The translations under genes were made by a program, and so were the position numbers. The notes beneath the pieces are model-generated. The model worked only from the letters and a program-made list of their open reading frames with translations, had not been told where the DNA came from and searched no databases. Positions 49,469-64,000 of a stretch of 64,000 bases of DNA are shown here, piece by piece (within the stretch, counting starts at the first letter, position 1; each line of letters begins with the position of its first letter). Origin of the DNA: an uncultured Nitrososphaerota archaeon (GTDB lineage Archaea > Thermoproteota > Nitrososphaeria > Nitrososphaerales > Nitrosopumilaceae); the NCBI GenBank assembly GCA_963701075.1, contig OY969559.1:1056001-1120000 (forward strand), in the 5' to 3' direction.

Positions 49469-49867
49469 ATGAGAATAGACCATGTTGCAATAGCTGTTAA
49501 CAACTTGGATGTAGCAGTAAAGGAATATCAAAACGTACTTGGAGTAAAAGAAGTAGAGTTTGAGACAGTAGAGACTGAAGGAGTGAGAGTTGCAATACTT
49601 CATCTAAACAATTCAAGAATTGAACTCATGGAACCAACAAAGGAGACAAGTCCAATCAAAAAATTCCTTGATACAAGAGGAGAAGGCTTGCACCATATTG
49701 CTCTTGAAACCGAAGGCATAGAAGGAGAAGTCGACAGAATGAAAGGTTCTGGAGTAAGATTTCTTGGAGAAATAAGGCCTGGCTCTGGAGGCACAAAGAT
49801 TACCTTTATTCATCCAAAGTCACTTCATGGCGTATTGACAGAGCTCTGCTCACACCCAAAAAAGTAA
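49469..49867 (+). CDS. mce: Methylmalonyl-CoA epimerase
   Basis: IDHVAIAV, IELMEP, GEGLHHIA and FIHPK...GVLTEL. Confidence 0.92.
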   Translation: MRIDHVAIAVNNLDVAVKEYQNVLGVKEVEFETVETEGVRVAILHLNNSRIELMEPTKETSPIKKFLDTRGEGLHHIALETEGIEGEVDRMKGSGVRFLGEIRPGSGGTKITFIHPKSLHGVLTELCSHPKK

Positions 49868-49983
49868 ATTAACATACTGCCATCAGCGTGATAGCGGATG
49901 GGATATCTTCTAATCTTAGATATTGATTTCCAATTATGATATTTTATAATTTACTTTTTATACGCAAGTTATACATGTAGAAT

Positions 49984-50412
49984 ATGATAAAACACATCAT
50001 GGTACCATATGATACATCAGAATCTTCTATCCGTGCATTTGAGTTTGCAGTTGATCTTGCAAAAAAATACAATTCAAGCATTAGTATTTTTTCATGTGTT
50101 CATCTACAGGTTCCAACCGATCCATACTTTGGGACAGCGTATGCAGAAACAACAAAACTATTGGAAAAAGACGCTATCAACTCAATATCAAAGTTAGAAC
50201 CAAGATTGAAAGAATCCAAGATACCGTTCAAGACTGAGGTATTGGAAGCAATTTCCATTACTGATGCCATAATATCATATGCGGAATCTCACCAAGTAGA
50301 TCTTATTGTGATGGGCTCGCGTGGACTGGGTGGATTTAAGAAACTATTGCTTGGGAGTGTCGCAAGTGGTGTCTCTCAACACTCAAAATGCCCAGTTTTA
50401 ATTATCAAGTAA
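49984..50412 (+). CDS. Universal stress protein (USP1)
   Basis: IMVPYD.S and VMGSRGLGGFKKLLLGSVA..V...CPVLIIK. Confidence 0.92.
   Translation: MIKHIMVPYDTSESSIRAFEFAVDLAKKYNSSISIFSCVHLQVPTDPYFGTAYAETTKLLEKDAINSISKLEPRLKESKIPFKTEVLEAISITDAIISYAESHQVDLIVMGSRGLGGFKKLLLGSVASGVSQHSKCPVLIIK
50308..50369 (+). repeat. 62-bp exact direct repeat, copy 1 (copy 2 at 51315-51376)
   Basis: gtgatgggctcgcgtggactgggtggatttaagaaactattgcttgggagtgtcgcaagtgg is identical in USP1 and USP3. Confidence 0.9.
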
Positions 50413-50453
50413 TACTGTTGAATCGTTGAGCGAGATAGATTACGGAAAACAAT

Positions 50454-50889
50454 CTATTTGACTATGAGAACTGGGATCTCCAAGTTGTTAAGAACCCCAT
50501 TAGTAACGCTGCCTAAATACTTGGTATCCGATGAGCTCTGACCTCTAGATCCCATTATTACTATATCAAACCTCTTTGATTTTGCAAAACCAACTATCGT
50601 TTTGACAATGCCAGGCGAGGTAATGATCTTTCCGTCAAATTCTATACCGTTCTTTGTTACACTTGATCTCAGCTTGAAGCATGATTTTTTCTGCACTTTT
50701 TATCAATTCTGTTCTGTATTTTTTTAACAGTGTAGGCGCTTTGGAAAACCCAGAGCTTGATATTACATAAAGTCCGGTTACTGTTCCGCTACTTTGCTTT
50801 GCAAGCGAAATTGCTACGTTTAAACCTCTTATTGAATTTGGGGAACCGTCCAACGGAACAAGAATTTTTTTTAGGGTATTTTGCGACAT
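50454..50889 (-). CDS. Universal stress protein (USP2); one apparent +1 indel at 50670
   Basis: ILVPLDGS N-half and MGSRG..LGSV C-half are in different frames; removing the base at 50670 joins them as LQARSSVTKNG. Confidence 0.8.
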
Positions 50890-50990
50890 GTTTGTAAATC
50901 TACATCGTATACTTAAAAACCAGATATATCAAGTTATCAAAAATGAAATTCTAAGGTCTCTTTAAATGGGCTGATTGATAATCTTTCTTT

Positions 50991-51419
50991 ATGTTTGAGC
51001 ACATCATGGTGCCATATGACAAGTCAGAACCTGCCAGTAGAGCACTTGAATATGCAATGGATCTTGCCAAGAAATACAGTTCAAAAATAAGTATTATAAC
51101 ATATGTGTCCCTGAACGTCGGTTATTCTGCAGATGGTGGTAGTTCATACGTGGAGATGGTAAAATTGCAAAAGAAATCAGCAGAATACACTCTCTCAAAA
51201 TTAGAACCAAAGTTACAAAAACTCAAAATTCCTTACTGCATTAAAGCAATTGAAGGAACATCCATCATTGAAACTTTAATTTCCTATGCAGAAATGCATC
51301 ACGTAAATCTTATAGTGATGGGCTCGCGTGGACTGGGTGGATTTAAGAAACTATTGCTTGGGAGTGTCGCAAGTGGAGTCTTACAGCATTCGGAGTGTCC
51401 TGTGTGGATAGTAAAATAG
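50991..51419 (+). CDS. Universal stress protein (USP3)
   Basis: IMVPYD.S and VMGSRGLGGFKKLLLGSVA. Confidence 0.92.
   Translation: MFEHIMVPYDKSEPASRALEYAMDLAKKYSSKISIITYVSLNVGYSADGGSSYVEMVKLQKKSAEYTLSKLEPKLQKLKIPYCIKAIEGTSIIETLISYAEMHHVNLIVMGSRGLGGFKKLLLGSVASGVLQHSECPVWIVK
51315..51376 (+). repeat. 62-bp exact direct repeat, copy 2
   Basis: Identical to 50308-50369. Confidence 0.9.
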
Positions 51420-51488
51420 GAATTTTGCTAGCCTTACATACCCAATAGCTGCAGTGCAGCTCACTGCATACATAGTTGTTAAATTCTA

Positions 51489-51674
51489 TTGAATCAATCC
51501 ACTATCGATCAGAAAATGGTATCAAGCCAGAAGATTGGACTCTTGAACTTCTTTGGAGTAAAAAACTCAAGAAAATACATTCTCATTTGCATAAGGTGTG
51601 GTTCTGATAATATTCAGCGGAAACAAAACCTTATTGAATGCAGAGAATGCGGTAAAGTTCTTTCCACCAAATAG
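51489..51674 (+). CDS. Small zinc-ribbon protein
   Basis: CIRCGS and CRECG. The start position is uncertain. Confidence 0.5.
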   Translation: MNQSTIDQKMVSSQKIGLLNFFGVKNSRKYILICIRCGSDNIQRKQNLIECRECGKVLSTK

Positions 51675-51748
51675 TGCCAAATTGTAATAACAAAAGGCCA
51701 GATAGAGCAAAAGGCTTAACCAATAATGAACCAAGTCTTGTAGATGGA

Positions 51749-52642
51749 CTAGGATTTTTGCGCACTGAGCAATTTACGAATTGAGCGTAATTCTTGTCTG
51801 CGTTTTGCACCTGATTTTGGATAAGCCATTTTGAGTTCTTTTAGTGCATCTAAGATGATCTGTGAAATGATCAGTCTGGTGTTCTCTTTGTCATCTGCAG
51901 GAATGACATACCAAGGTGCCTCAGTCGTGCTTGTGGCACTCAGACAATCTTCATATGCTCTCATGTAATGCTTCCAAAATTTTCTCTCCTCTATATCTGC
52001 AAGGCTAAATTTCCAATTCTTTTCGGGCTCATCAATACGCTTTAGAAAACGTTTCCGTTGTTCTTCTTTTGAAATATGGAGGAAAAATTTGATTATGCGT
52101 GTTCCGTTGCGATGTAGATGGTTTTCCAAGTTCACTATAGAATGATATCGTTGATGCCACATTGTATGCTTATCCAACAATTCATTTGGAAGGCATTCAC
52201 TGTGGAGAATCTCTGGATGTACACGAACAATCAGTACCTCTTCATAATAAGAACGATTGAAGATACCTATTCGCCCCCTTTCAGGCAGACATTGAACAGT
52301 ACGCCATAAAAAATCATGCTTAAGTTCCTCATTGCTTGGATGTTTGAAGCTGAACACTTGACATCCTTGAGGATTGATGCCAGACATCACATGTTTGATA
52401 GCACTGTCTTTTCCTGCCGCATCCATTGCCTGAAAAATCAATAGTAACGAATAGCGGTTTGATGCATAGAGAAGATTTTGCAAGGAGCTTAGTTCTTCCA
52501 CATGTTTTCTGAGGACTTGGTTATACTGTTCCTTTGATTTGTACACGGGGTTCACAGTTGTTTTATAGTTACTGAGTTTCACCTTTTTTCCTGCAGGTAC
52601 AAGAAAATCATTGCAATTTATTTTCATCATGTCACCTTTCAT
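51749..52642 (-). CDS. ppk2: Polyphosphate kinase 2, class III-type
   Basis: Walker A AMDAAGKD, Walker [27 protein letters not shown] and [11 protein letters not shown]. Confidence 0.92.
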
Positions 52643-52682
52643 TTCTGTAGTTTATAAAATATGTAAATAAGCACAAAAGATA

Positions 52683-52913
52683 TCATGCCCAGCAATAATG
52701 CAACAAGATGGTTTTGTACCAAGACTCAATTGAGTTATTTAGCAAAAAACCAAATAGAAAAGCTGAAAATGTTGTTAAAAGTGTGCTTTCCCTTATTATT
52801 GATCCGTAATCACTTGTCAGCGCGTCCTTGTCTGCACGTTCATATCTATCTTTGTTAGACAATCTGCCACTAGTTGAGTTTCTCCTATATTGAATAAACC
52901 GGCAAAATTTCAT
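52683..52913 (-). pseudogene. Probable truncated membrane-protein fragment
   Basis: One TM-like segment (ESTLLTTFSAFLFGFLLN) and then an abrupt end. Confidence 0.3.
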
Positions 52914-52922
52914 TTGTGATGA

Positions 52923-53399
52923 CTATATTCCCAATAATGATACAGTTTCACCATCTTTGTCGGAAGCTAGCACCTTACCTGATTCTTCCTTAGGGTCTAG
53001 TGAATAGACTGCTTTTGGTTTGAACATTATTACAGTAGGATGTTTATTCTTGCTTTGTTGTTCAAATATCTTCGATGATGTCTTGCCAGTGGCTGAGCGC
53101 GATATTGTTTCGATGATTTTTTCCCCCTTATTTTCATCAGTTATGAAACTCACCTTGCCTTTCATTTGGAATCCTCGTAATTGTTCTTTGTCAAAAACAG
53201 CCACACTAACCCAAGGTATTACTCGAAAATTTCCTTGGGATTTGTGTTTGAAAAAATCTAACCAATATATGGAATCATCTGTAAAATAAAATGCGGTCCT
53301 CGGTGATATGTTGGCTAATCCGTTTGGGTCGACTGAAGCAACCACTATGAACTTTTGTCTTTTCATCATGTAAAGTACATCTTCTGGAATTGTAACCAT
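52923..53399 (-). CDS. Pyridoxamine 5'-phosphate oxidase-like FMN-binding protein
   Basis: VVASVDPNG.ANISPR, HKSQGN..P.VSV and GFQMKG split-barrel pattern. Confidence 0.8.
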   Translation of the reverse strand: MVTIPEDVLYMMKRQKFIVVASVDPNGLANISPRTAFYFTDDSIYWLDFFKHKSQGNFRVIPWVSVAVFDKEQLRGFQMKGKVSFITDENKGEKIIETISRSATGKTSSKIFEQQSKNKHPTVIMFKPKAVYSLDPKEESGKVLASDKDGETVSLLGI

Positions 53400-53497
53400 G
53401 GGATTCCTTTCAATTTCTTTTAAATAAAAGTAATGATTGATTATCTTGATTGATAATCTTCATTCTCGTTATATAACATAGACAAGACAAATAATGC

Positions 53498-54253
53498 ATG
53501 AAAATTATTGTCGCAGCAATAGTTTCAATACTTGTTTTAACTGGATTGTGTGATTTGGCATATGCTGAATCATCATATCAAATGGAAGGAAGTGGGGCTG
53601 CAGTGATGGATACTAATAATCCGCAAATGTACCAATCCATATTTAGAATGACACTGTCAAACCAATCAACCATTACAAAAGGAACATTTCTGGTATATGG
53701 AAGTGATGTGTACCTACATGCATACATGTTGCCTCAAAGCTGGTCATTTTTGTATAATGCAGACGGATCTTTTCATGGACAAGGCCCAGTTCAGACCACT
53801 CAAGGCCAATTCTTTGATGTTGCATTAGATGGTAACCGGGTATTTGCAACAAACACCGGTTCACTATGGAAAGTAAGCGCCGATATGAAAAACAACAATA
53901 CCAATATGATACTTGATTATTTAACTACTGGAATAGATCCACTTCCCACCGTAAACGTATCTTCAAATGCAACTGTAATGATTCCAAACGGCAACTCTAA
54001 CGTAACTGGCGTTGGTTTTTACATACCGCTAAATCTAGAGGCGATGCGAGGAACCACAGTAACATGGCAAAACGAGGATAACATAGGCCATGTAATACAG
54101 AGCCAAGACGGCCACGGAAACATCATACCTATCTTTAGCAGTGCCATATTGAAGACAGGAGATACATTTAGCTACAAATTTGACAAGCCAGGTGTGTATT
54201 ATTATTTTTGTACAATACATCCGTGGAGAACCGGCGTAGTAACCATATCCTGA
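53498..54253 (+). CDS. Secreted cupredoxin (plastocyanin/azurin-like) domain protein
   Basis: Signal peptide, GTTVTWQN.D..GH and FDKPGVYYYFCTIHPW. Confidence 0.85.
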   Translation: MKIIVAAIVSILVLTGLCDLAYAESSYQMEGSGAAVMDTNNPQMYQSIFRMTLSNQSTITKGTFLVYGSDVYLHAYMLPQSWSFLYNADGSFHGQGPVQTTQGQFFDVALDGNRVFATNTGSLWKVSADMKNNNTNMILDYLTTGIDPLPTVNVSSNATVMIPNGNSNVTGVGFYIPLNLEAMRGTTVTWQNEDNIGHVIQSQDGHGNIIPIFSSAILKTGDTFSYKFDKPGVYYYFCTIHPWRTGVVTIS

Positions 54254-54346
54254 GACATTTTTCATCATTATGTTGAACAGAAAAGGTGATTCTCATGTTT
54301 GGTATTCGTGTACCGAAAATAAATTGCAAATGCTTGTCATAATTAT

Positions 54347-55111
54347 ATGCTGGTTCAACATGCAGGCAGTTTGGAAGGAAGATCCCTCGCCACTAGTATA
54401 GTTGCATCTAAGGGACGGAAAAAAAATCAAAATGTACTGAGAGTAGAAAACTTATCAAAAATTTACAGCTCAGAATCAGGAAAAGTAGTTGCATTATCAA
54501 ACATCAATTTTACAGTAAAAAAAGGCGAGTTTGTCTCTATTCTGGGACCATCTGGAAGTGGCAAGTCAACTCTGCTATACATGATAGGAGCATTAGACAG
54601 ACCTAGTGCCGGTAAGGTCTACATTAATGGAGTTGACGTATTCTCACTTAATGATTCGGAGATTGCAATGGTCAGAAACAGGCTAATTGGATATGTCTTC
54701 CAGTCGTATAATTTGATAAATAGATCAACAGTGCTAAAGAATGTCAAGATACCAGTAACAATACGTGGAATGGCTCGTACTGAGGCCAATTTCAAGGCGA
54801 TGGAGATTATGAAAGCACTAGGTATAGATGACAAAATTAATGAAAAACCTGCGAATCTAAGCGGTGGTCAACAGCAGAGGGTTGCTATTGCAAGAGCACT
54901 TGTCAATAACCCATCAATAATACTTGCTGATGAGCCAACTGGTAATTTGGATACGAAAACTGGCAGTGAAGTGTTTGAGATACTCAAAAAACTATCCCGC
55001 CAATTTAACAGAACAATAATCATGGTTACTCATAACGCCGAGCTTGCAGAAGAGACAGATCGGTCTATATTTATAAAAGACGGAAGTATTGAAAGAGAAA
55101 CGCGGCATTAA
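54347..55111 (+). CDS. ABC transporter ATP-binding protein (LolD/MacB/SalX-like)
   Basis: GPSGSGKST, LSGGQQQRVAIARAL, ADEPTGNLD and VTH. Confidence 0.9.
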   Translation: MLVQHAGSLEGRSLATSIVASKGRKKNQNVLRVENLSKIYSSESGKVVALSNINFTVKKGEFVSILGPSGSGKSTLLYMIGALDRPSAGKVYINGVDVFSLNDSEIAMVRNRLIGYVFQSYNLINRSTVLKNVKIPVTIRGMARTEANFKAMEIMKALGIDDKINEKPANLSGGQQQRVAIARALVNNPSIILADEPTGNLDTKTGSEVFEILKKLSRQFNRTIIMVTHNAELAEETDRSIFIKDGSIERETRH

Positions 55112-55298
55112 ACATCATCATTTGTTCCGTATTACGTCCGTCTTTGATTTTAGTACGTAACGTGATATACTTTCAAGAAAGATCTTCTAAAGATATCTGG
55201 AGTTTTATATTATGTCATAAAATTAAATTTCATTGATTGAAACCCATCTTTGGAAATTAAACAGATATAATATATGCAATGACTAGTTATGGACATTA

Positions 55299-56840
55299 TT
55301 GCATCTTAAAGCTGATATTTTGGGAATAGATTCAGGTGGAAAACCAATTGTATTTCTTAACAAGTCTGATGCAGACGATATTGGAATAAGAGCTTCTGGC
55401 AGAATCACTTTAAATTTCAAAAAAAAGTTGCTCACTGCAATAGTTAACACAACAACGTCAGTCAATCGAGGCCATATTGGAATAAACGACGAAGTTAAAC
55501 GCATGCTTGGCCTAAAACAAAATTCTGACGTAGATGTAGAAATTGCGGCCTTTCCCAAATCACTCCAATTTATTCATAATAGATTGACTGGAAGGAGACT
55601 GTTATATCATGAAATTTACGAAATTGTAAAAGATGTAGTACAGGGGAACCTAAATGAAAATGAAATTTCTGCTTTTGTTACTGCATTAAGCATACAGGGA
55701 TTAGATTTGGATGAAGCAACAAGTCTTGCTTTGTCCATGGTTGAAACTGGAAAACAACTTGATCTTGGAAAAAAGATCATCGTGGACAAACACAGTATAG
55801 GTGGCGTGCCAGGGGACAAGACAACATTGCTAGTTGTTCCTATTGTGGCAGCTATGGGCCTTACAATTCCCAAGGTTTCCTCAAGGGCAATAACGTCAGC
55901 TGGCGGTACTGCCGACAGGGCTGAAACACTAATGCCTGTAGATCTAGAGATAAGCGAGATGGAACGCGTCATACGAAAAAGTAACGGCTGCATGGTATGG
56001 GGAGGATCGTTGGATCTTGCACCCGCCGATGATATTTTTGTTAGAAGTGAATATTCCTTGTACATTGATCCTCTGCTACTACCTTCCATCATGAGTAAGA
56101 AAAAGGCTGTTAATGCGACTCATCTTGTCATTGACATCCCAACGGGACGGGGATCAAAAATGCAGACTATCAGCGAGTCTGACTTTTTGGCTAAAGAACT
56201 AATCGAGCTTGGGCGAAGGCTTGGAATTCGTACACATTGTGTTTTGACAAATGGTGAAAAACCAATAGGGTTTACCATGGGGCCATCACTTGAAGTGAGA
56301 GAAGCTCTCTCCGTATTGATGAACAAAGTAGATGTTCCAGATCTTGTCGATAAAGTCTGTCACATCGCAGGAAGCATATTTGAAATGGTCGGAAAGAAAA
56401 ATGGCTACCACCTAGCAAGAGAGATCCTGCATAGTGGAAAAGCGGAGAAAAAAATGAGGGAAATTATAGGCCTGCAGGGAGGAAACTCGAAAGTAAAGAT
56501 TGAAGATTTGGCAATTGGCGAAGAAAAACATATGGTCAGAGCAAAAAAGCCCGGTCAAGTTCTATGGATGGACAATATTGCACTCATAGAAATTGCTCGA
56601 GCGGCAGGAGCTCCAAAGGACAAAGGCGCTGGCATTGTTTTTAACAAGAAGACTGGCGACAAGGTGCGAATTGGTGATGTTTTGTATACTATCTACGCCG
56701 AAAAACCGCGAAAACTCTCAAGAACAGTTGAACTACTATCAGAAACAGAGCCATTTGGAATAGGTGACAATGTAGAGATGCTCATACACAAAATAAAAGA
56801 ATCTTCGTTTGTAAAAAGATCATTTATGATAGACAGGTAG
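55299..56840 (+). CDS. deoA: AMP phosphorylase (thymidine phosphorylase family with N-terminal extension)
   Basis: DKHSIGGVPG.KTT, PKVSSRAITSAGGTAD, WGGSLDLAPADD, SIMSKKKA and IARAAGAPKDKGAG; 513 aa; first gene of the operon. Confidence 0.92.
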   Translation: MHLKADILGIDSGGKPIVFLNKSDADDIGIRASGRITLNFKKKLLTAIVNTTTSVNRGHIGINDEVKRMLGLKQNSDVDVEIAAFPKSLQFIHNRLTGRRLLYHEIYEIVKDVVQGNLNENEISAFVTALSIQGLDLDEATSLALSMVETGKQLDLGKKIIVDKHSIGGVPGDKTTLLVVPIVAAMGLTIPKVSSRAITSAGGTADRAETLMPVDLEISEMERVIRKSNGCMVWGGSLDLAPADDIFVRSEYSLYIDPLLLPSIMSKKKAVNATHLVIDIPTGRGSKMQTISESDFLAKELIELGRRLGIRTHCVLTNGEKPIGFTMGPSLEVREALSVLMNKVDVPDLVDKVCHIAGSIFEMVGKKNGYHLAREILHSGKAEKKMREIIGLQGGNSKVKIEDLAIGEEKHMVRAKKPGQVLWMDNIALIEIARAAGAPKDKGAGIVFNKKTGDKVRIGDVLYTIYAEKPRKLSRTVELLSETEPFGIGDNVEMLIHKIKESSFVKRSFMIDR

Positions 56841-56843
56841 TAC

Positions 56844-57677
56844 ATGAAGACACTTCAACAAGTAACGGATGACATAAGAGAATTCAGAATCCAAGGAGCA
56901 AACCAAATTGCACTGTACAGTTTATGCTTCTTAAAAAAAATTGCGCTTTGTTATGGATTTGGACTCAAATTCAAGACTGTATCACGACATTTGGAAAGGG
57001 CCAGACCAACCGCAGTAGTACTTCATAACTGTATTCAGATTATAAACACAAGTCCAAAAATTTCTACAATTGATACTTTGATTAATACGCTACGTGACAT
57101 GGGAGAAAAAGAAGCAGTATACTCGGCCAAGATTATAAAGAATGGTTCTACAATAATTACATACTGTCACTCGGGGGAAGCAATGTCATTTATCAAACAT
57201 GCGTGGATAAAATACAAAAAGAGATTTTCTGTGATTGCGTGCGAGACAGAACCTTTGGAACAAGGTGTAAGAACCGCAAAAGAGCTGGCAAAAGTGGGAA
57301 TCCCTGTAACCCTGATTGATGATAACGCGATCGGGTTCTTCATAAAATGTGCAGATATGGTAATTGTTGGTGCGGATGCATTACGAAAAGAAGGACTGGT
57401 TAACAAGATAGGAACTAGCCTTCTTGCACAGGCAGCAAATGATGCAGCCAAGCCATTCTATGTGATAGCCAGCTCGCTTAAGATTGACAAGAGGAGAAAA
57501 TTTGAGATCGAGGAGAGGCCTGCAAACGAGATATACAGAAAAATAATGCACAAAAGAGGGCTGGGTGGAATAAAGATACGAAATCCGGCCTTTGATACAA
57601 CTCCATGGAAATATGTTACTGCTGTAATAAACGAGAGAGGAGTCTTGACAAAGAATCAGCTGAGGAAAGTGATATGA
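56844..57677 (+). CDS. Ribose-1,5-bisphosphate isomerase (eIF-2B alpha/beta/delta family)
   Basis: IQGA..IA, RPTAV.L.N, TYCHS (catalytic Cys), VGAD (catalytic Asp), NKIGT and NPAFDTTP; lies between AMP phosphorylase and RuBisCO. Confidence 0.85.
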   Translation: MKTLQQVTDDIREFRIQGANQIALYSLCFLKKIALCYGFGLKFKTVSRHLERARPTAVVLHNCIQIINTSPKISTIDTLINTLRDMGEKEAVYSAKIIKNGSTIITYCHSGEAMSFIKHAWIKYKKRFSVIACETEPLEQGVRTAKELAKVGIPVTLIDDNAIGFFIKCADMVIVGADALRKEGLVNKIGTSLLAQAANDAAKPFYVIASSLKIDKRRKFEIEERPANEIYRKIMHKRGLGGIKIRNPAFDTTPWKYVTAVINERGVLTKNQLRKVI

Positions 57678-58963
57678 GGCACATCGATTGGTACAAAGAC
57701 TTTGTTGATTTAAAGTACAAGCCAAGCAAAACTGACGTAGTCTGTCTTTTCAGATTTGAACCATCTGATAAAGTATCGGTTGTTGAAGCAGCTGGTAGAA
57801 TAGCTTCTGAAAGCTCGGCTGGAACATGGACAACACTGACCAAGTTGCCAAAAACAATAAAAAAAGTAATGGCGACTTCTTTTGAGATAAATGGCAATTT
57901 TGCTAAGGTTGCATATCCAATCGAGATCTGGGAACCAGGAAACATATCACAGCTGTTAAGCGGTATTGCCGGAAATATTTTTGGGATGAAAGCATTAGAA
58001 AATCTCAGGCTTGTTGATGTATCTTTGCCCATTCAATATACCAAACATTTCAGAGGACCAGAGTTTGGAATAGAAGGAATTAGAAGAATTCTAAAAGTAA
58101 GAAAGAGACCAATTACAGGGGCAGTAGCAAAACCCAAGATAGGATGGAGTGCTGAAGAACATGCGACGATTGCCTATGAGACGTGGATTGGAGGGTTTGA
58201 TTTGGTAAAAGACGATGAAAACCTTACATCAACACAGTTTAACAAATTTGAACAACGCGTAAAGCTTTGTGCCAAGATGCGAGACAAGGCTGAAAAAGAG
58301 AGCGGAGAAAGAAAATCCGCACTGATAAACATAACTGGAGAAACTAATCAGATGACAAAGCGCGCTAAAATGCTGCATGATTTTGGATTTGAATATGCAA
58401 TGATAGATGTGGTTACAGTAGGTATGTCAGCATTGCAAACTTTGCGTGAGGTGTGTCATGACCATAATCTGGCAATACATGCGCACAGGGCAATGCATGC
58501 TGCATTTGACAGAAATCCAAGACATGGCATATCGATGCTGTTTCTTGCCAAGATCTGTCGATTGATAGGCGTCGACCAGCTTCACATAGGGACCGTGATA
58601 GGCAAACTTGTTGGAACGCGTCATGATGTTCTAGATATAAAAAACGCGATTACTAGTCAAAATAACAAGAGGTTTGGCAGCCTGAATCAAAATTGGAACA
58701 ACATCAAACCGGTTTTTCCAGTCTCTTCTGGAGGCATACACCCAGGAATCATACCTGATGTGTTAAAGATCATGGGAAATAACATAGTGTTACTGGTGAG
58801 TGGTGGAATACACGGTCATCCAAATGGTACCCGTGATGGAGCACGTGCTGCAATGCAGTCTATTGAAGCCTCAATGCAGAGGATCCCGTTATATCAATAC
58901 GCAAGATCACACAAAGAACTTGGAGATGCCTTGGCAAAGTGGGGCCGTCTTAGGCCTCAATGA
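57674..58963 (+). CDS. rbcL: Form III ribulose-1,5-bisphosphate carboxylase
   Basis: ESSAGTWT, AGNIFGMK, KPKIG, GGFDLVKDDEN, HAHRAMHA, HIGTVIGKL, SSGG.HPG and GGIHGHP. ATG 57674 overlaps the upstream TGA. Confidence 0.95.
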   Translation: MRHIDWYKDFVDLKYKPSKTDVVCLFRFEPSDKVSVVEAAGRIASESSAGTWTTLTKLPKTIKKVMATSFEINGNFAKVAYPIEIWEPGNISQLLSGIAGNIFGMKALENLRLVDVSLPIQYTKHFRGPEFGIEGIRRILKVRKRPITGAVAKPKIGWSAEEHATIAYETWIGGFDLVKDDENLTSTQFNKFEQRVKLCAKMRDKAEKESGERKSALINITGETNQMTKRAKMLHDFGFEYAMIDVVTVGMSALQTLREVCHDHNLAIHAHRAMHAAFDRNPRHGISMLFLAKICRLIGVDQLHIGTVIGKLVGTRHDVLDIKNAITSQNNKRFGSLNQNWNNIKPVFPVSSGGIHPGIIPDVLKIMGNNIVLLVSGGIHGHPNGTRDGARAAMQSIEASMQRIPLYQYARSHKELGDALAKWGRLRPQ

Positions 58964-59007
58964 TTGTCATTTCATCTTTCATTGAATGTGTATATCTGAG
59001 AAACAAA

Positions 59008-59658
59008 TTATCTAATAATCACAACTGGACACTTGGCTTCTTCTGAAATTTTTCTGCTTACACTACCGAGTGCCATTATCTTGTTCAGTCTAGTCAATCC
59101 TCTACTGCCGATAACTATTAGGTCTATCTTGTTATCTCTTGCAAATTTTAGTATGGAATCAGCAGGTTTTCCAGTTATCACTTCGCAAAATGTATTGACT
59201 CCCGACTGCTTACATATTTTCATCTTTTCTTGGAGAACACTATTTGAATGATTTTTTTGTGGCTCTAAAATATCTTTATTTAATTTTTTTATCTTTTTGT
59301 TTACTTGATCTTGTATTATTATGGGTAATTGGTCTGTCTGGATATTGATGACATTTATTATGTATAATTCTGAACCAAACTCTTTTGCTATGTCAGTTGC
59401 CTCAATAAGTGCTTTTTTTGAATATTTTGAGTTATCATAAGGTACCAATATTTTGCCATATTTTTTCTTGCTAGGTAGAGATACGCCAGTACTTAGTTGT
59501 ACATCAATCCTTGATGCTGCATCATTTATTCTTTTTATATTTTGAAGAAAATCTTGATGATTGCCATATTTTGCATTTTTTAACATTACGCCTATCGTAT
59601 TTTTTATTATTGATACTTGCTTCCTTAATGAAAAATTATATTCGTAGTCCAAGTCCAT
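59008..59658 (-). CDS. Universal stress protein (USP4) with ~65 aa N-terminal extension
   Basis: ILVPYDNS and IVIGSRGL..ALGSVS..CPVVIIR. Confidence 0.85.
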   Translation of the reverse strand: MDLDYEYNFSLRKQVSIIKNTIGVMLKNAKYGNHQDFLQNIKRINDAASRIDVQLSTGVSLPSKKKYGKILVPYDNSKYSKKALIEATDIAKEFGSELYIINVINIQTDQLPIIIQDQVNKKIKKLNKDILEPQKNHSNSVLQEKMKICKQSGVNTFCEVITGKPADSILKFARDNKIDLIVIGSRGLTRLNKIMALGSVSRKISEEAKCPVVIIR

Positions 59659-59785
59659 ATCTATTCAACTACTGGAAAATGTATACTTATACTGTATCTC
59701 ATGGGATTACTTTTCTTACAATGAATTTAAAGGAATAATATAATTATCAAGATTGGAATCTTTTATATGAAAAAATTGGTTATTC

Positions 59786-60127
59786 CTAATTACTTGTATC
59801 AGAATTAGGAACGATTTCAACATCAAGTGAACCGCTTTTGAAACATGTTACAATGGACTTGATCTTTGATTTGTACAAAAAGTACTTTTTGCCATCCTGA
59901 CTTATGGAGCCGGAGATGCCAAGTAATTTGTGAGTATGTAGTAATTGCACTCTTCTGTATGTTGTGCTGATTGGAATACCACACTCTATACTTAGATCAA
60001 TGGTAGATTTTGGCATCTCAAGTGTAGATTCCAATATGGCACGGGAATACTTGTCAGCCAAGATCTCAAGCAAGACAGTCTTTGTTGTCTCTTCCTGTAC
60101 GGGTTTTGTCTGTAGTAAGACTTGCAT
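59786..60127 (-). CDS. ArsR-like winged-helix transcriptional regulator
   Basis: LADKYSRAIL, PKS..DLS.ECGIPISTTYRRVQ.L and DGKKYFLYKS. Confidence 0.8.
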   Translation of the reverse strand: MQVLLQTKPVQEETTKTVLLEILADKYSRAILESTLEMPKSTIDLSIECGIPISTTYRRVQLLHTHKLLGISGSISQDGKKYFLYKSKIKSIVTCFKSGSLDVEIVPNSDTSN

Positions 60128-60236
60128 GTACCTCTATTGGCACGAATTGATATAATCAGTAGGACTGCATTGCAGTGCAGTGCATACAAAAAACGCATTT
60201 TGAGATAGATTTTGTGTCTGTTTCCCCTTGCAGGCA

Positions 60237-60473
60237 CTATTTTTCTTCTTCTAGTCTCTCAATCTCTTCAAAACAGAGATTGACTAAATTTCTAAGATAT
60301 TCTGCCCTGTCGCGCAGAAGCGTTATTTGTTCATGTTCTTCCTCTTTTGACATTTTTTTGATGGTTAGATCCACCTGTCCAAAATACGTCAAGTCGTTTA
60401 TCTCGCCAAGAATCTTCAGTCTCTCTTCTTTAGATGTCAATTTTTCCCTTATTTCATCAAGATTACTCATCAT
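60237..60473 (-). CDS. Small helical hypothetical protein
   Basis: 78 aa charged ORF directly downstream of USP5. Confidence 0.5.
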   Translation of the reverse strand: MMSNLDEIREKLTSKEERLKILGEINDLTYFGQVDLTIKKMSKEEEHEQITLLRDRAEYLRNLVNLCFEEIERLEEEK

Positions 60474-60479
60474 TATTCA

Positions 60480-60905
60480 CTACTTTACTATAAGTACAGG
60501 AGTCTTTGATTTATGTACCACTGCGTTTGAGACGCTACCGAGAAAAACTTCCTTTACACTACCCAGTCCTCTTGCCCCAATTACTATTATGTCGAACTTG
60601 TTTTTTGTAGCAAAATCAACTATCTCTGAAGATTCGTTTCCGATTGCAGTTTTTCCAACAAAAACTATGCCATTTTGAGCAGCGCGTTTTTTAGCACTCT
60701 CCATAAACTCTCTGGCTGCTTTCATAAGGTATTTCTTGTCATAGGTTATTGGGGTAAAAGACTTTGGATAAATCGACATGACAAATAATCCCGTTATAGT
60801 TGCACCACACTGCCTTGCAAGATAGATGGCAGTGTCTAATCCTCTATACGAATTTTTTGATCCATCCAGAGGAACTAAGATTCGTCTAATTTTTGTTTTA
60901 ATCAT
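60480..60905 (-). CDS. Universal stress protein (USP5)
   Basis: ILVPLDGSKNS and IGARGLG..EVFLGSVS..PVLIVK. Confidence 0.92.
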   Translation of the reverse strand: MIKTKIRRILVPLDGSKNSYRGLDTAIYLARQCGATITGLFVMSIYPKSFTPITYDKKYLMKAAREFMESAKKRAAQNGIVFVGKTAIGNESSEIVDFATKNKFDIIVIGARGLGSVKEVFLGSVSNAVVHKSKTPVLIVK

Positions 60906-60946
60906 AAGCCACTTTCTTTCATGTTTAATTTAAGATTCACTTACAA

Positions 60947-60960
60947 TATCAATTATGATA
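60947..60960. promoter_or_regulatory. Candidate operator TATCA-N4-TGATA (perfect copy)
   Basis: TATCA-ATTA-TGATA between divergent USP5 and CBS genes; related copies occur in other island promoters. Confidence 0.5.
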
Positions 60961-61111
60961 ATCTATCTATAGTTTATCATGTATAAATAAGAGAGTAAGT
61001 ATAATGAAGTTTTCAATTATGATTATCTCAGATAAAAAAATGGCGTCCTTTTTATAGCCCTATGAATGTTTCAGAGAATGACGACATTGGGAATAATAGG
61101 AGATATCTGAG

Positions 61112-62278
61112 ATGAATTCTTTAGCAGCGTATGAACAGTTAAAGAATATTCGTGAACGTAAAGTTTCTAGAATTATAGGACCGGCAACTACGATAGAACC
61201 TACCGTTTCTGTCTCTAAACTCATAGGCATGATGCTCAGGGATGATTCTTACGATGTATTTTGTATGAATGGTCGTGAGGTATCAACCATAAATGCAAGA
61301 GAACTATTGACCTCGCGAGATGTCAAAAACATGAAGATCTCTCCTTTATTACACAAGGTTCAGGCCATAAGGAGAAATGATACCTTGGAGAAAGCGGCTG
61401 CAATTATGTCACATAATAGAATGCGTTCAGTTCCTGTAGTGGAAGACGGGAAAATAATTGGAGCAGTTAACATAAAAGAAATAATCAAACTATTAAATCA
61501 AGAGAACTTGAATTGGATCTCAGCAAGTGACATACTTACTCCAAATCCAATTACTATTGGCAGTAATGAATTACTTTCCTCTGCAAGACAAACGATGGCG
61601 ACGAAAAAAATAGATCACCTCCCCGTCATCAGTGGAGGAAAAGTATCTCAAGTCTTGACATCAATGCATCTTTTACATTTTGCTGTGCCTGAAGAAAGAA
61701 TAGGAAGTGGCATGAGAGGACGAAATACTGAAAGGAGATTTGGATCTCAGGTAGGTAATGCTGGAAGTACCAGAGTTCCCAACTGTCTTACAAGTGCATC
61801 TCTTAACACTGTAATGGGTGCAATGTTAAAGGCTGACACTTCATGTTGCTTGCTTACCTTGTGGGATAACCTACATGGAATAATTACTTACAAGGACTTG
61901 TTAGGAATACTTGAGTCCAGAATTCAAAGCACGGTACCCTTGTACATTATCGGGTTGCCGGAAAACTTGGGCAATGCACAAATAATAAAAGAAAAATTTG
62001 ACAAGATAATTAGAAATCTCATCAAGTCTTATCCTGAGGTGGAAGAGGCAAAAGCTAGTATCAAGACAATGCATAATCACGAAAGTAAGGGAGACCATTA
62101 CAAAGTTGTAATAAGAATAATGACACCATACAGGAGTTACAGCTATTCAGAACTTGGCTGGGATCTCTCAAAAGTTTTTGATATTCTTGGAAACAAAGTT
62201 ACCAGAAATCTCTCAAACCGAAGTAAGAAACGTTGGAAGACATCTGTTAGAAAGATAGAAAAGAGAAATATTTTCTAG
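61112..62278 (+). CDS. Four-CBS-domain protein with C-terminal HPF/RaiA-like domain (ribosome hibernation factor candidate)
   Basis: CBS motifs (RSVPVVEDGKIIG, DHLPVISGG, GIITYKDL), then a beta-alpha-beta-beta-beta-alpha-like tail (LYIIGL...YKVVIRI...GWDLSKVFD). Confidence 0.75.
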   Translation: MNSLAAYEQLKNIRERKVSRIIGPATTIEPTVSVSKLIGMMLRDDSYDVFCMNGREVSTINARELLTSRDVKNMKISPLLHKVQAIRRNDTLEKAAAIMSHNRMRSVPVVEDGKIIGAVNIKEIIKLLNQENLNWISASDILTPNPITIGSNELLSSARQTMATKKIDHLPVISGGKVSQVLTSMHLLHFAVPEERIGSGMRGRNTERRFGSQVGNAGSTRVPNCLTSASLNTVMGAMLKADTSCCLLTLWDNLHGIITYKDLLGILESRIQSTVPLYIIGLPENLGNAQIIKEKFDKIIRNLIKSYPEVEEAKASIKTMHNHESKGDHYKVVIRIMTPYRSYSYSELGWDLSKVFDILGNKVTRNLSNRSKKRWKTSVRKIEKRNIF

Positions 62279-62334
62279 TTATTTTTTTAAAAATTAACCA
62301 AGTTATTTCGGTATGTCATATGATTGATATCTAA

Positions 62335-62495
62335 TCACTTCTTATTTCTTGGACCTAGACTTGTTGCAACTATCTGTGCCATGTGTTTGGTCGCTGCAAT
62401 ATTGTTTCTTTGTGCATCGCAACCCTGGATTGTTTTGAACCATCTTTTGATACGATTACGGGTATTCCTTCAGATGTGGTCTGAACCAAAGCCAT
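62335..62495 (-). pseudogene. Thermosome (group II chaperonin) N-terminal remnant
   Basis: Reads MALVQTTSEGIPVIVSKDGSKQSR, then after a frameshift DAQRNNIAATKHMAQIVATSLGPRNKK*. This matches the thermosome N-terminus and stops where GMDKM is expected. Confidence 0.7.
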
Positions 62496-62548
62496 AAAGA
62501 CCTGTTACTTTTCAATAAAAATAGTAGAAGAAAATTACTATGCATGAT

Positions 62549-62562
62549 TATCATCCGTGATA
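62549..62562. promoter_or_regulatory. Candidate operator TATCA-N4-TGATA (perfect copy)
   Basis: TATCA-TCCG-TGATA just upstream of the TTATAA box of the PAC2 gene. Confidence 0.5.
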
Positions 62563-62641
62563 TTCTCCAACATGTTATAAAATTAGAAAAATACAGGTAA
62601 TTATATTGCTAGATAAAAATAATCCCAAAAACTTGAAGAAA

Positions 62642-63346
62642 ATGTCCACCGCGCCATCTATCTTGATTGTTGGCATTCCTGGACCTGGACTCATTGGTAC
62701 GCTCTCTGTCTCTTATCTGGTTCACTCGCTAGATATGGAAATTGTCGGTGAGATTGAAAACGAAGACACGACCCCTGTTGTGTTCGTTGATAATGGCGAA
62801 ATTTTTGGCCCAATTAGGATCTACAAAAAGGAATCACTGTATGCTATTCTTTCGGACACACCAATTGATTATGATATGGCTTCAGGTTTTTCTCAGTCAC
62901 TAATTGATTTTGCCCAAAAAAATAGCATAGACATGATTCTATTGCTTGGCGGCATACCTGCTTCTGAGAAAAATGCAGATGACATAAAAACATACGGACT
63001 CGCTACAAATGCAAAGCTTGACGCAATAATGTATGAAAATGAGATCCCCAAGTTTCTTAGCGGCATGATAGCAGGACCTGATGCTACCATACTTACACAT
63101 TTGAAAAATTCCACAATTCCATCATTGATTTTATTTACGCAGTGTAATTTCTTCTTCCCTGATCCTGAATCTGCCATGCATGCCATTGAGACAGTAGCAA
63201 GAATTGTAAAGCGAGATGTAGATCTTACTGAATTTAAGAAACAGATGAACTATTTGAGATTGCAAGGAAGACAGTTAATGGAAGAAACACTAAATGTTTT
63301 ACAACCGGAGCAAGAACCTCAGAAACCTCCACAGATTTACAAGTAG
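62642..63346 (+). CDS. PAC2-family proteasome assembly chaperone
   Basis: VGIPGPGLIG, PIRIY, LLGGIP and FPDPESA. Confidence 0.85.
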   Translation: MSTAPSILIVGIPGPGLIGTLSVSYLVHSLDMEIVGEIENEDTTPVVFVDNGEIFGPIRIYKKESLYAILSDTPIDYDMASGFSQSLIDFAQKNSIDMILLLGGIPASEKNADDIKTYGLATNAKLDAIMYENEIPKFLSGMIAGPDATILTHLKNSTIPSLILFTQCNFFFPDPESAMHAIETVARIVKRDVDLTEFKKQMNYLRLQGRQLMEETLNVLQPEQEPQKPPQIYK

Positions 63347-63350
63347 AGAA

Positions 63351-63746
63351 ATGTCGTCGCCAAGTTTTATCCCAGCATTTGAAAATCGCATCAATTCAAT
63401 ATTTGGCAATAGCTTAATTGATGATTTTGTCCATCGTGAGCTTGTACCTCTGTCTCATTTGACTGAAAAGGATTCAAGATGGATCTTGCAAATTGATCTC
63501 CCAGGAGTAAGAAAAAAAGATGTCTCAGTAACAGTAACCCGTGGTCACGTAATAGTAAAAGCCAAACTTGAAGAAGCATATCATGTTTCAAGGCATGGGC
63601 ATCTTACAAAGTTTGAATCTATGAGAAAAGTTTCTAGTCTTCCTACTCATGCAGATACAAAGAAGATCTCTGCTAGCCTCAAAAATGGAATTTTGACTAT
63701 AATGATTCCAAAAATAACGGACGGCAAGAAAATTCCAATTGACTGA
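63351..63746 (+). CDS. Hsp20/alpha-crystallin small heat-shock protein
   Basis: IDLPGVRKKDVSV and ASLKNGILTI.IPK...GKKIPID. Confidence 0.88.
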   Translation: MSSPSFIPAFENRINSIFGNSLIDDFVHRELVPLSHLTEKDSRWILQIDLPGVRKKDVSVTVTRGHVIVKAKLEEAYHVSRHGHLTKFESMRKVSSLPTHADTKKISASLKNGILTIMIPKITDGKKIPID

Positions 63747-63855
63747 ATCTTTGCACGATGAACAAATCATGCCTATCTGTATCTTGCCTGTTTTGTTATG
63801 CTATGAGATAGTTTATCTCTAAAACATATCAACTGGATATTGGGAATTGAATAAT

Positions 63856-64000
63856 TTGAATTATGCAAATAGAAGAATATTTGTAATCAAGTCAGATGGA
63901 ACTAGAGTACCGTTTAACCACAGAAAAGTCAAGCGAACATGTATTCGAGCAGGGGCTTCTAGAGAACTAGCTAATATTGTAGCAAACAAGGTCTCAGACC
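63856..64000 (+). CDS. ATP-cone domain protein, N-terminal part (runs off the window)
   Basis: From TTG 63856: ...IFVIKSDGTRVPFNHRKVKRTCIRAGASRELANIVANKV, matching the ATP-cone V.K.DG...F...K signature. Confidence 0.7.
   Translation, partial: MNYANRRIFVIKSDGTRVPFNHRKVKRTCIRAGASRELANIVANKVSD

Follow-up and report, generated by a model that had tools for sequence, protein, structure and literature searches.

The DosR regulon of Mycobacterium tuberculosis comprises tens of genes, among them those for universal stress proteins (USPs), an alpha-crystallin/Hsp20 protein, a CBS protein, and an HPF-like factor, and has a palindromic operator and a NarL/LuxR-type response regulator with sensor kinases. 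Another large, co-regulated locus rich in USPs and other stress proteins, the low-oxygen-activated (lxa) locus of Burkholderia cenocepacia, is said to be linked to persistence. Ammonia-oxidizing archaea persist for long in soils, sediments, and oxygen-poor water, but little is understood of their shutdown and revival. Here we analyze a gene island of such an archaeon that begins in a stretch of 64,000 nucleotides (the window; contig C1, positions 1,056,001 to 1,120,000, of genome G000, which consists of one contig of 1,915,938 bp) and continues past the window end in the stretches termed L002 and L003; other G numbers designate the genomes of relatives. G000 encodes an archaeal AmoA and is thus that of an ammonia oxidizer, probably of the genus Nitrosotalea to judge from the names attached to close homologs of one island protein (Nitrosotalea and Nitrosopumilaceae) and from the presence of a type III RuBisCO. 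By kind, the system probably falls among the stress or dormancy regulons whose members share an operator. We hold it to be likely that this ~40-kb region is an accessory, portable island in which stress, ribosome-hibernation, and AMP-recycling genes share that operator and are activated together.

Several components of such a system have been described in archaea. (i) The ribosome hibernation factors HibA/AHA were described in 2026 (PMC13324472, PMC13728122); in Thermococcales, AMP is the preferred ligand of HibA, and 70S ribosomes are preserved (PMC13324472). (ii) The genes hibA and sri rarely co-occur in 91 genomes, and a Nitrososphaerales "SriC-short" clade was set apart as a divergent group that may differ in function (PMC13454478). 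(iii) Integrated elements of thaumarchaea carry USP, CBS, and plastocyanin-like cargo (PMC6563490). (iv) A type III RuBisCO adjoining AMP phosphorylase was reported as a species-specific feature of "Candidatus Nitrosotalea bavarica," with Nitrosotalea as the one ammonia oxidizer reported to have this enzyme (PMC5767755), and the archaeal AMP metabolic or pentose bisphosphate pathway is that of Sato et al. 2007 (cited in PMC5767755). (v) The regulatory roles of the USPs of ammonia-oxidizing archaea are largely unknown according to a 2026 proteomics paper (PMC12974425). What is already known, then, is RuBisCO together with AMP phosphorylase in a Nitrosotalea, the HibA/AHA, Sri, and Dri factors, USP and CBS genes as mobile cargo, and the co-expression of USP and CBS genes in Nitrosopumilus maritimus SCM1. 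An initial annotation of the window knew of no description of such a module in these organisms; this does not hold for RuBisCO/AMP phosphorylase, HibA/Sri, and USP/CBS cargo, which are in print, and apparently holds for the island as a unit and for its operator. We found no USP/CBS regulon or operator of ammonia oxidizers in the literature, in which the supplementary figures on HibA and Sri may list these Nitrososphaerales proteins. The following aspects appear undescribed: the island unit and its relocation, the palindromic operator with its fixed position and family-wide conservation, the winged helix-turn-helix (wHTH) protein as candidate regulator, and the embedding of the RuBisCO shunt.

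The left edge of the island lies directly after mce (methylmalonyl-CoA epimerase; window positions 49469 to 49867, plus strand; Glyoxalase_4, E = 1e-24), at window position 49868, and the right edge at G000 position 1,145,730 (L003:7730), ~25.7 kb past the window end. The distance from mce to the HTH_3-CBS gene, after which PPDK and TIM follow, is 39,863 bp, or 2.08% of G000. The initial annotation was correct in taking mce as the last core gene, with stress genes starting right after it, and had given the island a length of 14 kb or more; the stretch that it covered (49868 to 64000) is the left third. Nearly all of the gene content that it named was recovered by Pfam or NCBIfam. Within this 2.08% of the genome, we found 10 of the 18 USP genes (binomial p = 6e-13) and 11 of the 15 CBS-domain proteins (binomial p = 4e-16) that Pfam identifies in G000, as well as 30 of its 38 CBS-domain matches. 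This concentration far exceeds chance. The island showed no compositional anomaly, its GC content being 0.36 to 0.41 as in the rest of the window.

Both the DosR regulon and the island contain some tens of genes, are rich in USPs, and include Hsp20, a CBS protein, and an HPF-like factor, and in both a common palindromic operator stands upstream of many members; the island operator differs in sequence and in promoter type (archaeal TATA/BRE, where BRE is the transcription factor B recognition element). They also differ in the organism and in the regulator, for which the island candidate is a small ArsR/TrmB-like wHTH protein; no response-regulator or histidine-kinase domain was detected among the island open reading frames (ORFs) scanned with Pfam. 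Rv2626c, a CBS protein of the DosR set, was a weak match of the island protein that combines CBS domains with an HPF-like C terminus (CBS-HPF protein). The likeness to DosR that had been pointed out earlier is one of content and logic and not of homology. The lxa locus, likened here by description only, is similarly large and rich in USPs and stress proteins; it is bacterial and has another regulator and a known signal.

The evidence that carries our interpretation is a DNA element common to the island promoters. An analysis of k-mer enrichment in the 150 nt upstream of genes revealed the word TGATAAT at 14 of 47 island genes, compared to 70 of 1,877 others. The full element is an 18-bp inverted repeat, ATTATCA-N4-TGATAAT, which is carried by ~20 island promoters. 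When intergenic DNA was searched at a threshold of at least 12 of 14 matches, a spacer of 4 nt gave 48 sites in G000, of which 18 were in the island, whereas spacers of 2, 3, 5, and 6 nt gave 8 to 12 sites each, with 0 or 1 in the island. The distance from the repeat to the start codon was 40 or 41 nt in 14 of 30 island site-gene pairs, and outside the island it peaked at 40 to 42 nt (14 sites; the mean was 0.85 per position). A single 13/14 copy (53440 to 53457) lies midway in the 98-bp gap between the divergent genes for a PNPOx-like protein and a cupredoxin and serves both starts at 40 nt. Since TATA-like words (WTATAW) peak at -35 to -26 from the start codons across G000, most transcripts are probably leaderless, and the repeat would then probably sit just upstream of the BRE/TATA region of these seemingly leaderless transcripts. 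Archaeal activators bind just upstream of BRE/TATA, so that activation is favored. The repeat precedes genes of unrelated families, namely, USP, CBS, PAC2-Hsp20, PNPOx, cupredoxin, ABC ATPase, alcohol dehydrogenase (ADH), DUF6114, and small unknown proteins, and outside the island it precedes USP, wHTH, and PhaC paralogs. To judge from this arrangement, the motif-bearing genes are probably switched on together. Perfect 14/14 copies were also found outside the island at G000:C1:1,545,548 and 1,650,303, before small genes without island paralogs, and 13/14 copies at G000:C1 positions 1,548,303, 1,657,520, 1,703,478, and 1,706,253, some of which are close to USP genes; the genes at these copies are probably further members of the regulon. 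An operator with a fixed promoter position yields a concrete, testable gene set, against which existing transcriptomes and proteomes can be reread without genetics.

The operator is conserved beyond G000. The intergenic density of the core word was 2.8 to 2.95 per kb in the 20-kb island stretches of G020 and G027 on the downstream side of RuBisCO; the upstream G027 stretch had 1.04 per kb and G036 had 0.87 per kb, compared to 0 to 0.48 per kb in eight congener stretches downstream of mce. Across congeners, sites precede the same orthologs (PAC2, four-CBS, USP, and PNPOx/cupredoxin); those upstream of the cupredoxin and PAC2 genes are present at the orthologs in G020, G027, and G036. In six other genera of the family, we examined 11 loci picked around wHTH orthologs, for which the spacer control is the fair comparison: there were 50 sites with a spacer of 4 nt and 12 with a spacer of 5 nt, and 26 of 54 site-to-start distances were 39 to 42 nt. 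At these loci, the wHTH ortholog is found beside several of the following: four-CBS, ribbon-helix-helix (RHH), USP, CBS-HPF, and PAC2-Hsp20 genes. Over 61 family genomes, 347 sites matched the pattern with one mismatch or none, against 21 for the reversed control (hand-summed), and 49 of these genomes contained at least one match; one of the 347 sites comes from an unpublished genome (G269). Other genera of the family thus have in common with G000 the repeat, its promoter position, and a set of core genes, namely, the wHTH, four-CBS, RHH, USP, HibA-like, and PAC2-Hsp20 genes.

The symmetry of the repeat leads us to infer that a dimeric regulator binds it, and the best candidate is the island wHTH protein (113 aa; 59786 to 60127, minus strand). 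Its status as an ArsR/TrmB-like wHTH candidate, in line with the regulator proposed earlier, is based only on weak Pfam matches and on protein-atlas clusters with the automatic names "ArsR family" and "Transcriptional regulator"; among solved structures, a sequence search returned only FixK2 (E = 0.19). Several features single it out. (i) It is the most conserved island protein between species, with 84% identity in G020 and G027 compared to 58 to 60% for its neighbors. (ii) Orthologs (E <= 1e-8) were found in 154 of 201 genomes of the order, and in every genus examined they are located in these clusters. (iii) All of 20 sequences compared, which come from seven genera, have the same putative recognition helix, IPISTxYRRxQ. 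(iv) A homodimer model scored 0.43, a mark reached by 20 of 30 solved homodimers and by 1 of 23 single chains, whereas the best control scored 0.00; pLDDT was at least 82, and the contact agreement between runs was at least 94%. This result may reflect a likeness of the model to solved ArsR-type dimers. The wHTH promoter holds two sites in one genus, and the island copies in G000 hold none.

The CBS-HPF protein has a length of 388 aa (61112 to 62278, plus strand). Pfam finds its CBS domains and gave nothing relevant for the C-terminal 112 residues, where the HPF domain (residues ~271 to 388) became visible only with a domain profile and a domain model. The full AlphaFold2 model (mean pLDDT, 79.6) comprises four CBS domains followed by a beta-alpha-beta-beta-beta-alpha C terminus. 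In a Foldseek search with the whole protein, in which the CBS module dominates, the top matches were MJ1225, AMPK gamma, SriD, SriA/B, and Dri. A profile built from the C termini of 11 orthologs had bacterial HPF (8uu4_w) as its best match in the Protein Data Bank (PDB) (E = 0.005, positions 14 to 103 of 118), and 5 of its 10 listed matches were HPF. The model of the C-terminal domain (pLDDT, 77.4) has the same beta-alpha-beta-beta-beta-alpha topology, and its Foldseek matches listed for ranks 1 to 29 (25 entries, repeat chains being omitted after rank 10) were all HPF/RaiA/pY-type factors, the best with E = 5e-6 and TM scores of 0.68/0.74. The earlier reading of this gene as a CBS-HPF fusion is borne out by models, profile, and Foldseek alike, and by sequence and model the protein has the defining HibA/AHA architecture. 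It aligns over residues 34 to 311 with HibA of Pyrococcus abyssi (chain 9sr9_H), which is of similar length (392 aa) and likewise consists of an N-terminal four-CBS module and a C-terminal domain of the HPF/RaiA fold. Unlike the described HibA/AHA factors, the protein studied here is known by sequence and model, and its gene lies in a USP/CBS island beside Sri-like four-CBS genes. The gene is not specific to the island: orthologs with 58 to 60% identity are present in RuBisCO-free congeners, and none is present in G015. Orthologs with 41 to 56% identity were also observed in other genera of the family (L046, L050, L053, and L054); either the published account uses another family label, or it missed these proteins. 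G015, at 97% completeness, has only one USP match, lacks matches to the CBS-HPF protein, PPK2, and RuBisCO, and seems to be without the entire module.

Three stand-alone four-CBS proteins of the island have chains of Sri complexes as their nearest solved relatives. Those encoded at L002:3256-4122 and L003:6320-7180 match best chain 6 of 9ZNI, the SriC-SriD complex (9zni_6; E = 2e-25 and 1e-20), and the one at L002:15006-15782 matches best chain 4 of 9ZNF, the SriA-SriB complex (9znf_4; E = 3e-16); Dri (9e6q) was also among the matches of the island four-CBS proteins. This likeness, seen in the best PDB sequence matches, is a generic CBS likeness. HibA-like and Sri-like four-CBS genes are neighbors in the G000 island, and these factors gain both a regulatory and a genomic context by standing together in one island.

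From these data, the following course of events can be proposed. A dimeric regulator, for which the island wHTH protein is the best candidate, would bind the palindrome and, from just upstream of the TATA region, would activate the genes jointly under a stress signal. The roles expected of their products are to park ribosomes, to protect proteins, and to sense adenylates; where a lineage also has the accessory genes, PPK2 would rephosphorylate ADP from polyphosphate, and surplus AMP would go to 3-phosphoglycerate via RuBisCO. The conserved core, that is, adenylate-binding sensors, hibernation factors, small heat-shock and PAC2 proteins, and one operator, probably represents a stress program that parks translation and protects proteins. 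A more far-reaching version, which we put forward tentatively as no better than possible, is a dormancy or energy-stress regulon of the entire family, in which an ArsR-like wHTH dimer on the 18-bp palindrome, at -41 to -58 of leaderless promoters, would co-activate HibA-type and Sri-like factors, USP/CBS sensors, and small heat-shock and PAC2 proteins, and which some Nitrosotalea would have packaged in a moving island of 40 to 50 kb that recruited the RuBisCO shunt and polyphosphate kinase. On this version, a drop in energy charge would be sensed and answered within a single program, by silencing the ribosomes and by disposing of adenylates or recharging them.

A number of observations weigh against a co-activated stress island. 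To our knowledge, no role has been established for USPs or stand-alone CBS proteins in any ammonia oxidizer. The motif was found on the same island on which the enrichment was first measured, and independent checks come from the spacer control, from the peak in position, and from further species and genera. Island homologs, however, guided the choice of loci in those other species, and relatives are nonindependent samples. Distances hinge on predicted start codons, as genes were called crudely as the longest ORFs. Several members are poorly equipped with sites: in G000, no better site than an 11/14 one at -85 precedes the HibA-like gene; the copy at the canonical distance from the RuBisCO operon is of 8/14 quality; and the two island wHTH genes, PPK2, the gene for an ATP-cone protein, PhaC, and several others are without their own site. 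RuBisCO and PPK2, moreover, are not conserved parts of the cluster. Candidates for alternative regulators are the RHH protein at L003:4519-5097 and the flanking HTH_3-CBS protein. The RHH protein has 192 aa with an N-terminal CopG/RHH-like segment; in every genus examined, it is conserved (57 to 89% identity) as a neighbor of the wHTH gene and of a four-CBS gene. As for the trigger, the only experimental data that we found are from N. maritimus SCM1: the products of USP-CBS operons were detected only at the highest growth temperature, and the usp transcripts of those operons did not respond to ammonia starvation or copper stress (PMC12974425). These data do not fit an energy-starvation trigger well; they weaken hypoxia and ammonia starvation as triggers, as proposed in the initial annotation, and keep a heat or proteotoxic reading alive.

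A regulon for heat or proteotoxic stress, in which the repeat is the operator of a heat-shock type regulator and the adenylate theme is incidental, is the alternative that survives best, and we consider it rather unlikely. Its logic would be comparable to that of Phr, the wHTH protein that represses the genes for Hsp20 and an AAA+ ATPase in Pyrococcus. Two Hsp20 genes and PAC2 lie in the island, the PAC2-Hsp20 pair has a 13/14 site, and the SCM1 usp transcripts are not regulated by ammonia starvation or copper stress (PMC12974425), all of which fits such a regulon. Heat alone, however, leaves the hibernation factor, PPK2, and the AMP-degrading pathway unexplained, and the operator probably lies upstream of the TATA region rather than over the start site, where archaeal repressors usually bind.

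The island is also a discrete unit that apparently moves as a block between chromosomal sites. In all five congeners examined (G009, G014, G015, G026, and G027), the HTH_3-CBS ortholog comes immediately after that of mce, so that the 40 kb of G000 represent an insertion relative to these congeners. Islands collinear over most of their length are present in G020, G027, and G036; the genes thus form one unit with linkage conserved in at least three other congeners, as had been supposed. The G027 island, ~49 kb long, lies on another contig, and its two flanks are contiguous in G000 at 1,801,366-1,801,766; reciprocally, G027 has the bare mce|HTH-CBS junction. The G036 island borders sequence that is found at 0.886 Mb in G000. 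In total, the island occurs in three chromosomal contexts with reciprocal empty sites that are intact, which amounts to a presence/absence polymorphism. G009 and the RuBisCO-free congeners G014 and G026 have smaller clusters in which genes of these families occur together with the repeat.

These contexts could also mean that the island is, or was, an integrative mobile element with stress genes as cargo, a possibility that is compatible with a regulon and would explain the mobility, and that we nevertheless judge unlikely. The G027 island starts right after an intron-containing tRNA gene, and this tRNA gene marks the matching empty site in G000; UspA (16 elements) and CBS arCOGs rank high among the cargo genes of the integrated elements of thaumarchaea (PMC6563490), which share with the island the USP, CBS, and plastocyanin-like content, a patchy distribution, and one copy beside a tRNA gene; and CopG/RHH-like, Zn-ribbon, and nuclease-fold ORFs are present in the island. 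Unlike these elements, the island was found to have no integrase, att repeats, or replication genes. Tyrosine integrases (PF00589) are absent from the G000 island and its surroundings, the only matches in G000 lying at 0.57, 0.98, 1.24, and 1.77 Mb (those at 0.98 and 1.24 Mb being nearest), and from the island contigs of G027 (C25), G036 (C66), and G020 (C26). The window and the island extension of G000 contain no tRNA gene. In the search for att-like repeats, the two ends of the G000 island had no word of at least 10 nt in common, and the 3' half of the tRNA was not repeated beyond 12-mers in G027. No replication or conjugation genes were seen among the island ORFs. If the island is truly mobile without an integrase of its own, it is a case of the transfer of a stress program en bloc within a genus. 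The intron-containing tRNA gene at G000:C1:1,801,561-1,801,657 was not named by ARAGORN, and its anticodon loop was read by eye as CAT.

It is quite improbable that the island is a flexible region in which USP and CBS genes were duplicated in tandem many times over, promoters included, and to which horizontal cargo was added, so that the motif would have been inherited without a single program. The paralogs of both families are numerous and 45 to 70% identical among themselves, two promoters (L002:18622 and L003:7205) are alike beyond the motif itself, the GC content is not anomalous, and content varies by species, with 1 to 13 USP matches (PF00582) per genome in five congeners compared to 20 (18 genes) in G000. 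Duplication does not account, however, for a motif that precedes the unrelated PAC2, PNPOx, cupredoxin, ADH, DUF6114, and ABC ATPase genes, that keeps its spacer and its position of 40 to 41 nt across genera in which orthologs are only 40 to 60% identical, and that also stands outside the island before USP, wHTH, and PhaC paralogs. That the repeat is an extended core-promoter element read by a TFB/TBP paralog is very improbable: the distance to the TATA region is fixed and ammonia-oxidizing archaea have several TFB paralogs, but dyad symmetry and a strict 4-nt spacer fit a dimeric DNA-binding protein, one centered copy serves two divergent promoters symmetrically, and BRE abuts the TATA box, whereas the repeat lies ~10 nt further upstream.

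The initial annotation had placed the RuBisCO operon at the center of the island. It is an accessory instead: RuBisCO was matched in 9 of 36 congeners (8 full length and 1 fragment), and the operon of G000 has only a degenerate operator. PPK2 is likewise an accessory; it is unlinked to RuBisCO in G009 and G014 and unlinked or absent elsewhere. All nine RuBisCO-matching congeners have island-family genes beside RuBisCO. No island-family neighbors were detected at RuBisCO in three genomes of other families (G054, G049, and G052) within the stretches read, so that the link between RuBisCO and the stress cluster is genus specific. The RuBisCO fragment of G025 (212 aa; L031:13052-13690, G025:C11:53051-53689) has an in-frame TAG and lies between an ATP-cone and a four-CBS gene. 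This suggests a decayed RuBisCO operon in an island context, and loss rather than independent gain in some lineages.

The operon itself comprises three plus-strand genes, for AMP phosphorylase (55299 to 56840; TIGR03327 equivalog, 568 bits, cutoff 535), an e2b2/IF-2B family protein (56844 to 57677), and the form III RuBisCO large chain (57674 to 58963; TIGR03326 equivalog, 577 bits, cutoff 497). AMP phosphorylase and type III RuBisCO, both named beforehand, are thus above their NCBIfam equivalog cutoffs. The middle gene had been called ribose-1,5-bisphosphate isomerase; it belongs to the e2b2/IF-2B family (PF01008, E = 4e-55) and remains below the cutoff of TIGR00511 (181 bits, cutoff 314). 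It lies inside the RuBisCO operon in nine genomes, and its place between AMP phosphorylase and RuBisCO makes it probably the isomerase. The best solved relative of the RuBisCO is 2cwx (E = 1e-143), and the blocks KPK, KDDEN, HAHRAMHAAF, and SGG-HPG, which we take to represent active-site residues, are kept. Judged by its equivalog score and these aligned blocks, the form III RuBisCO is predicted to be catalytically competent. As in the AMP pathway and in "Ca. Nitrosotalea bavarica," AMP phosphorylase and type III RuBisCO occur together, here with the e2b2-family gene between them. Differently from the latter genome, in which the isomerase is encoded elsewhere (Herbold et al., PMC5767755), that gene, although under its family cutoff, is inside the operon, which is embedded in a stress island and travels with it. 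The island thereby provides a physiological context in which the type III RuBisCO of certain ammonia oxidizers, a puzzling enzyme, can be viewed.

At the operon promoter, a degenerate operator-like block (55240 to 55257, plus strand; 8/14 by hand count) ends 41 nt before the TTG start of AMP phosphorylase and is followed by a TATA-like box. The copy at this canonical distance has 10/14 matches in G027 and G036 (also hand-counted), and the block TCA-N4-TGRAAAT together with TATA is conserved in five species, including G009. It is possible that the RuBisCO operon belongs to the regulon. At the window end, the 280-aa ATP-cone protein with a restriction-endonuclease-like part starts at 63847 (plus strand), runs off the window at 64000, and is complete at L002:847-1689; its ATP-cone match has E = 4e-11, and its matches to AF1548-like_C and Mrr_cat are weak. 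In G004, G009, and G016, the gene for this protein lies divergently beside the AMP phosphorylase gene or RuBisCO operon. By analogy to NrdR, this protein could sense nucleotides and, as a DNA-binding regulator, control the RuBisCO operon.

PPK2 (51749 to 52642, minus strand) is present as annotated (PF03976, E = 8e-68), and the assumed recharging of AMP is not what its family model names, since NF042973 (516 bits, cutoff 450) is that of an ADP-polyphosphate phosphotransferase. The gene follows the PNPOx-like gene on the same strand, the gaps being 9 and 40 nt, and by this arrangement probably rides on the PNPOx transcript in G000. PPK2 matches with in-frame stop codons were observed at G009:C2:4641-5504 and G014:C1:720145-721020, and PPK2 may be decaying in these two genomes.

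All five USPs recognized earlier in the window were retrieved with PF00582, one of them split over two frames. USP 1 (49984 to 50412, plus strand; E = 2e-31) and USP 3 (50991 to 51419, plus strand; E = 2e-29) are each preceded by an 11/14 operator copy ending 40 nt upstream. The split USP 2 (50454 to 50889, minus strand) extends over two overlapping frames, and its N- and C-terminal halves match PF00582 separately; an intact counterpart exists in G020 and G027 (67 to 68% identity to the island paralog usp9), and the split is either a real frameshift or pseudogene or a sequencing error. USP 4 (59008 to 59658, minus strand; E = 8e-30) has an N-terminal extension of 65 aa. USP 5 (60480 to 60905, minus strand; E = 2e-28) has a 13/14 operator copy (60945 to 60962) that ends 39 nt upstream, and after it there is a 78-aa coiled-coil ORF (60237 to 60473). 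A perfect 13-nt inverted repeat with a 75-nt loop (49859-49871/49947-49959) extends over the stop codon of mce and the first USP promoter, at the left island boundary.

The remaining genes of the window part are as follows. The PNPOx-like FMN-binding protein (52923 to 53399, minus strand; PF01243, E = 3e-10) and the cupredoxin with an N-terminal hydrophobic segment (53498 to 54253, plus strand; Copper-bind, E = 7e-6) form a divergent pair that is kept in G020, G027, G036, G014, and G164. An ABC transporter ATPase (54347 to 55111, plus strand; PF00005, E = 6e-36), absent from the earlier gene list, has an 11/14 operator copy ending 40 nt upstream; it stands between cupredoxin and AMP phosphorylase only in G000, and these two adjoin in G020, G027, and G036. 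The PAC2-family protein, which is proteasome assembly chaperone-like (62606 to 63346, plus strand; PF09754, E = 5e-30), is preceded by a 13/14 operator copy (62547 to 62564) that ends 41 nt before its start, and its gene overlaps by 53 nt with that of the Hsp20 small heat-shock protein (63294 to 63746, plus strand; PF00011, E = 1e-14); the pair is kept in G009, G026, G125, G128, and G134. A thermosome remnant had also been listed among these proteostasis genes. None was found: PF00118 matches only two full genes elsewhere in G000. A tblastn comparison of thermosome with the island gave nothing better than E = 0.8.

The part of the island past the window contains 5 more USP genes and 10 more CBS-domain proteins, among which are five proteins with four CBS domains and one M50-CBS protease. 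Also encoded there are a second Hsp20, PhaC, a second cupredoxin, ADH, a phosphoribosyltransferase (PRTase) with alpha/beta hydrolase, the RHH protein, a second copy of the wHTH protein (L003:5893-6231), and transporters, namely, permeases and an ABC-2 exporter. The ABC-2 membrane protein at L002:8091-8874 consists of two adjacent minus-strand ORFs (91 and 168 aa) and may be split.

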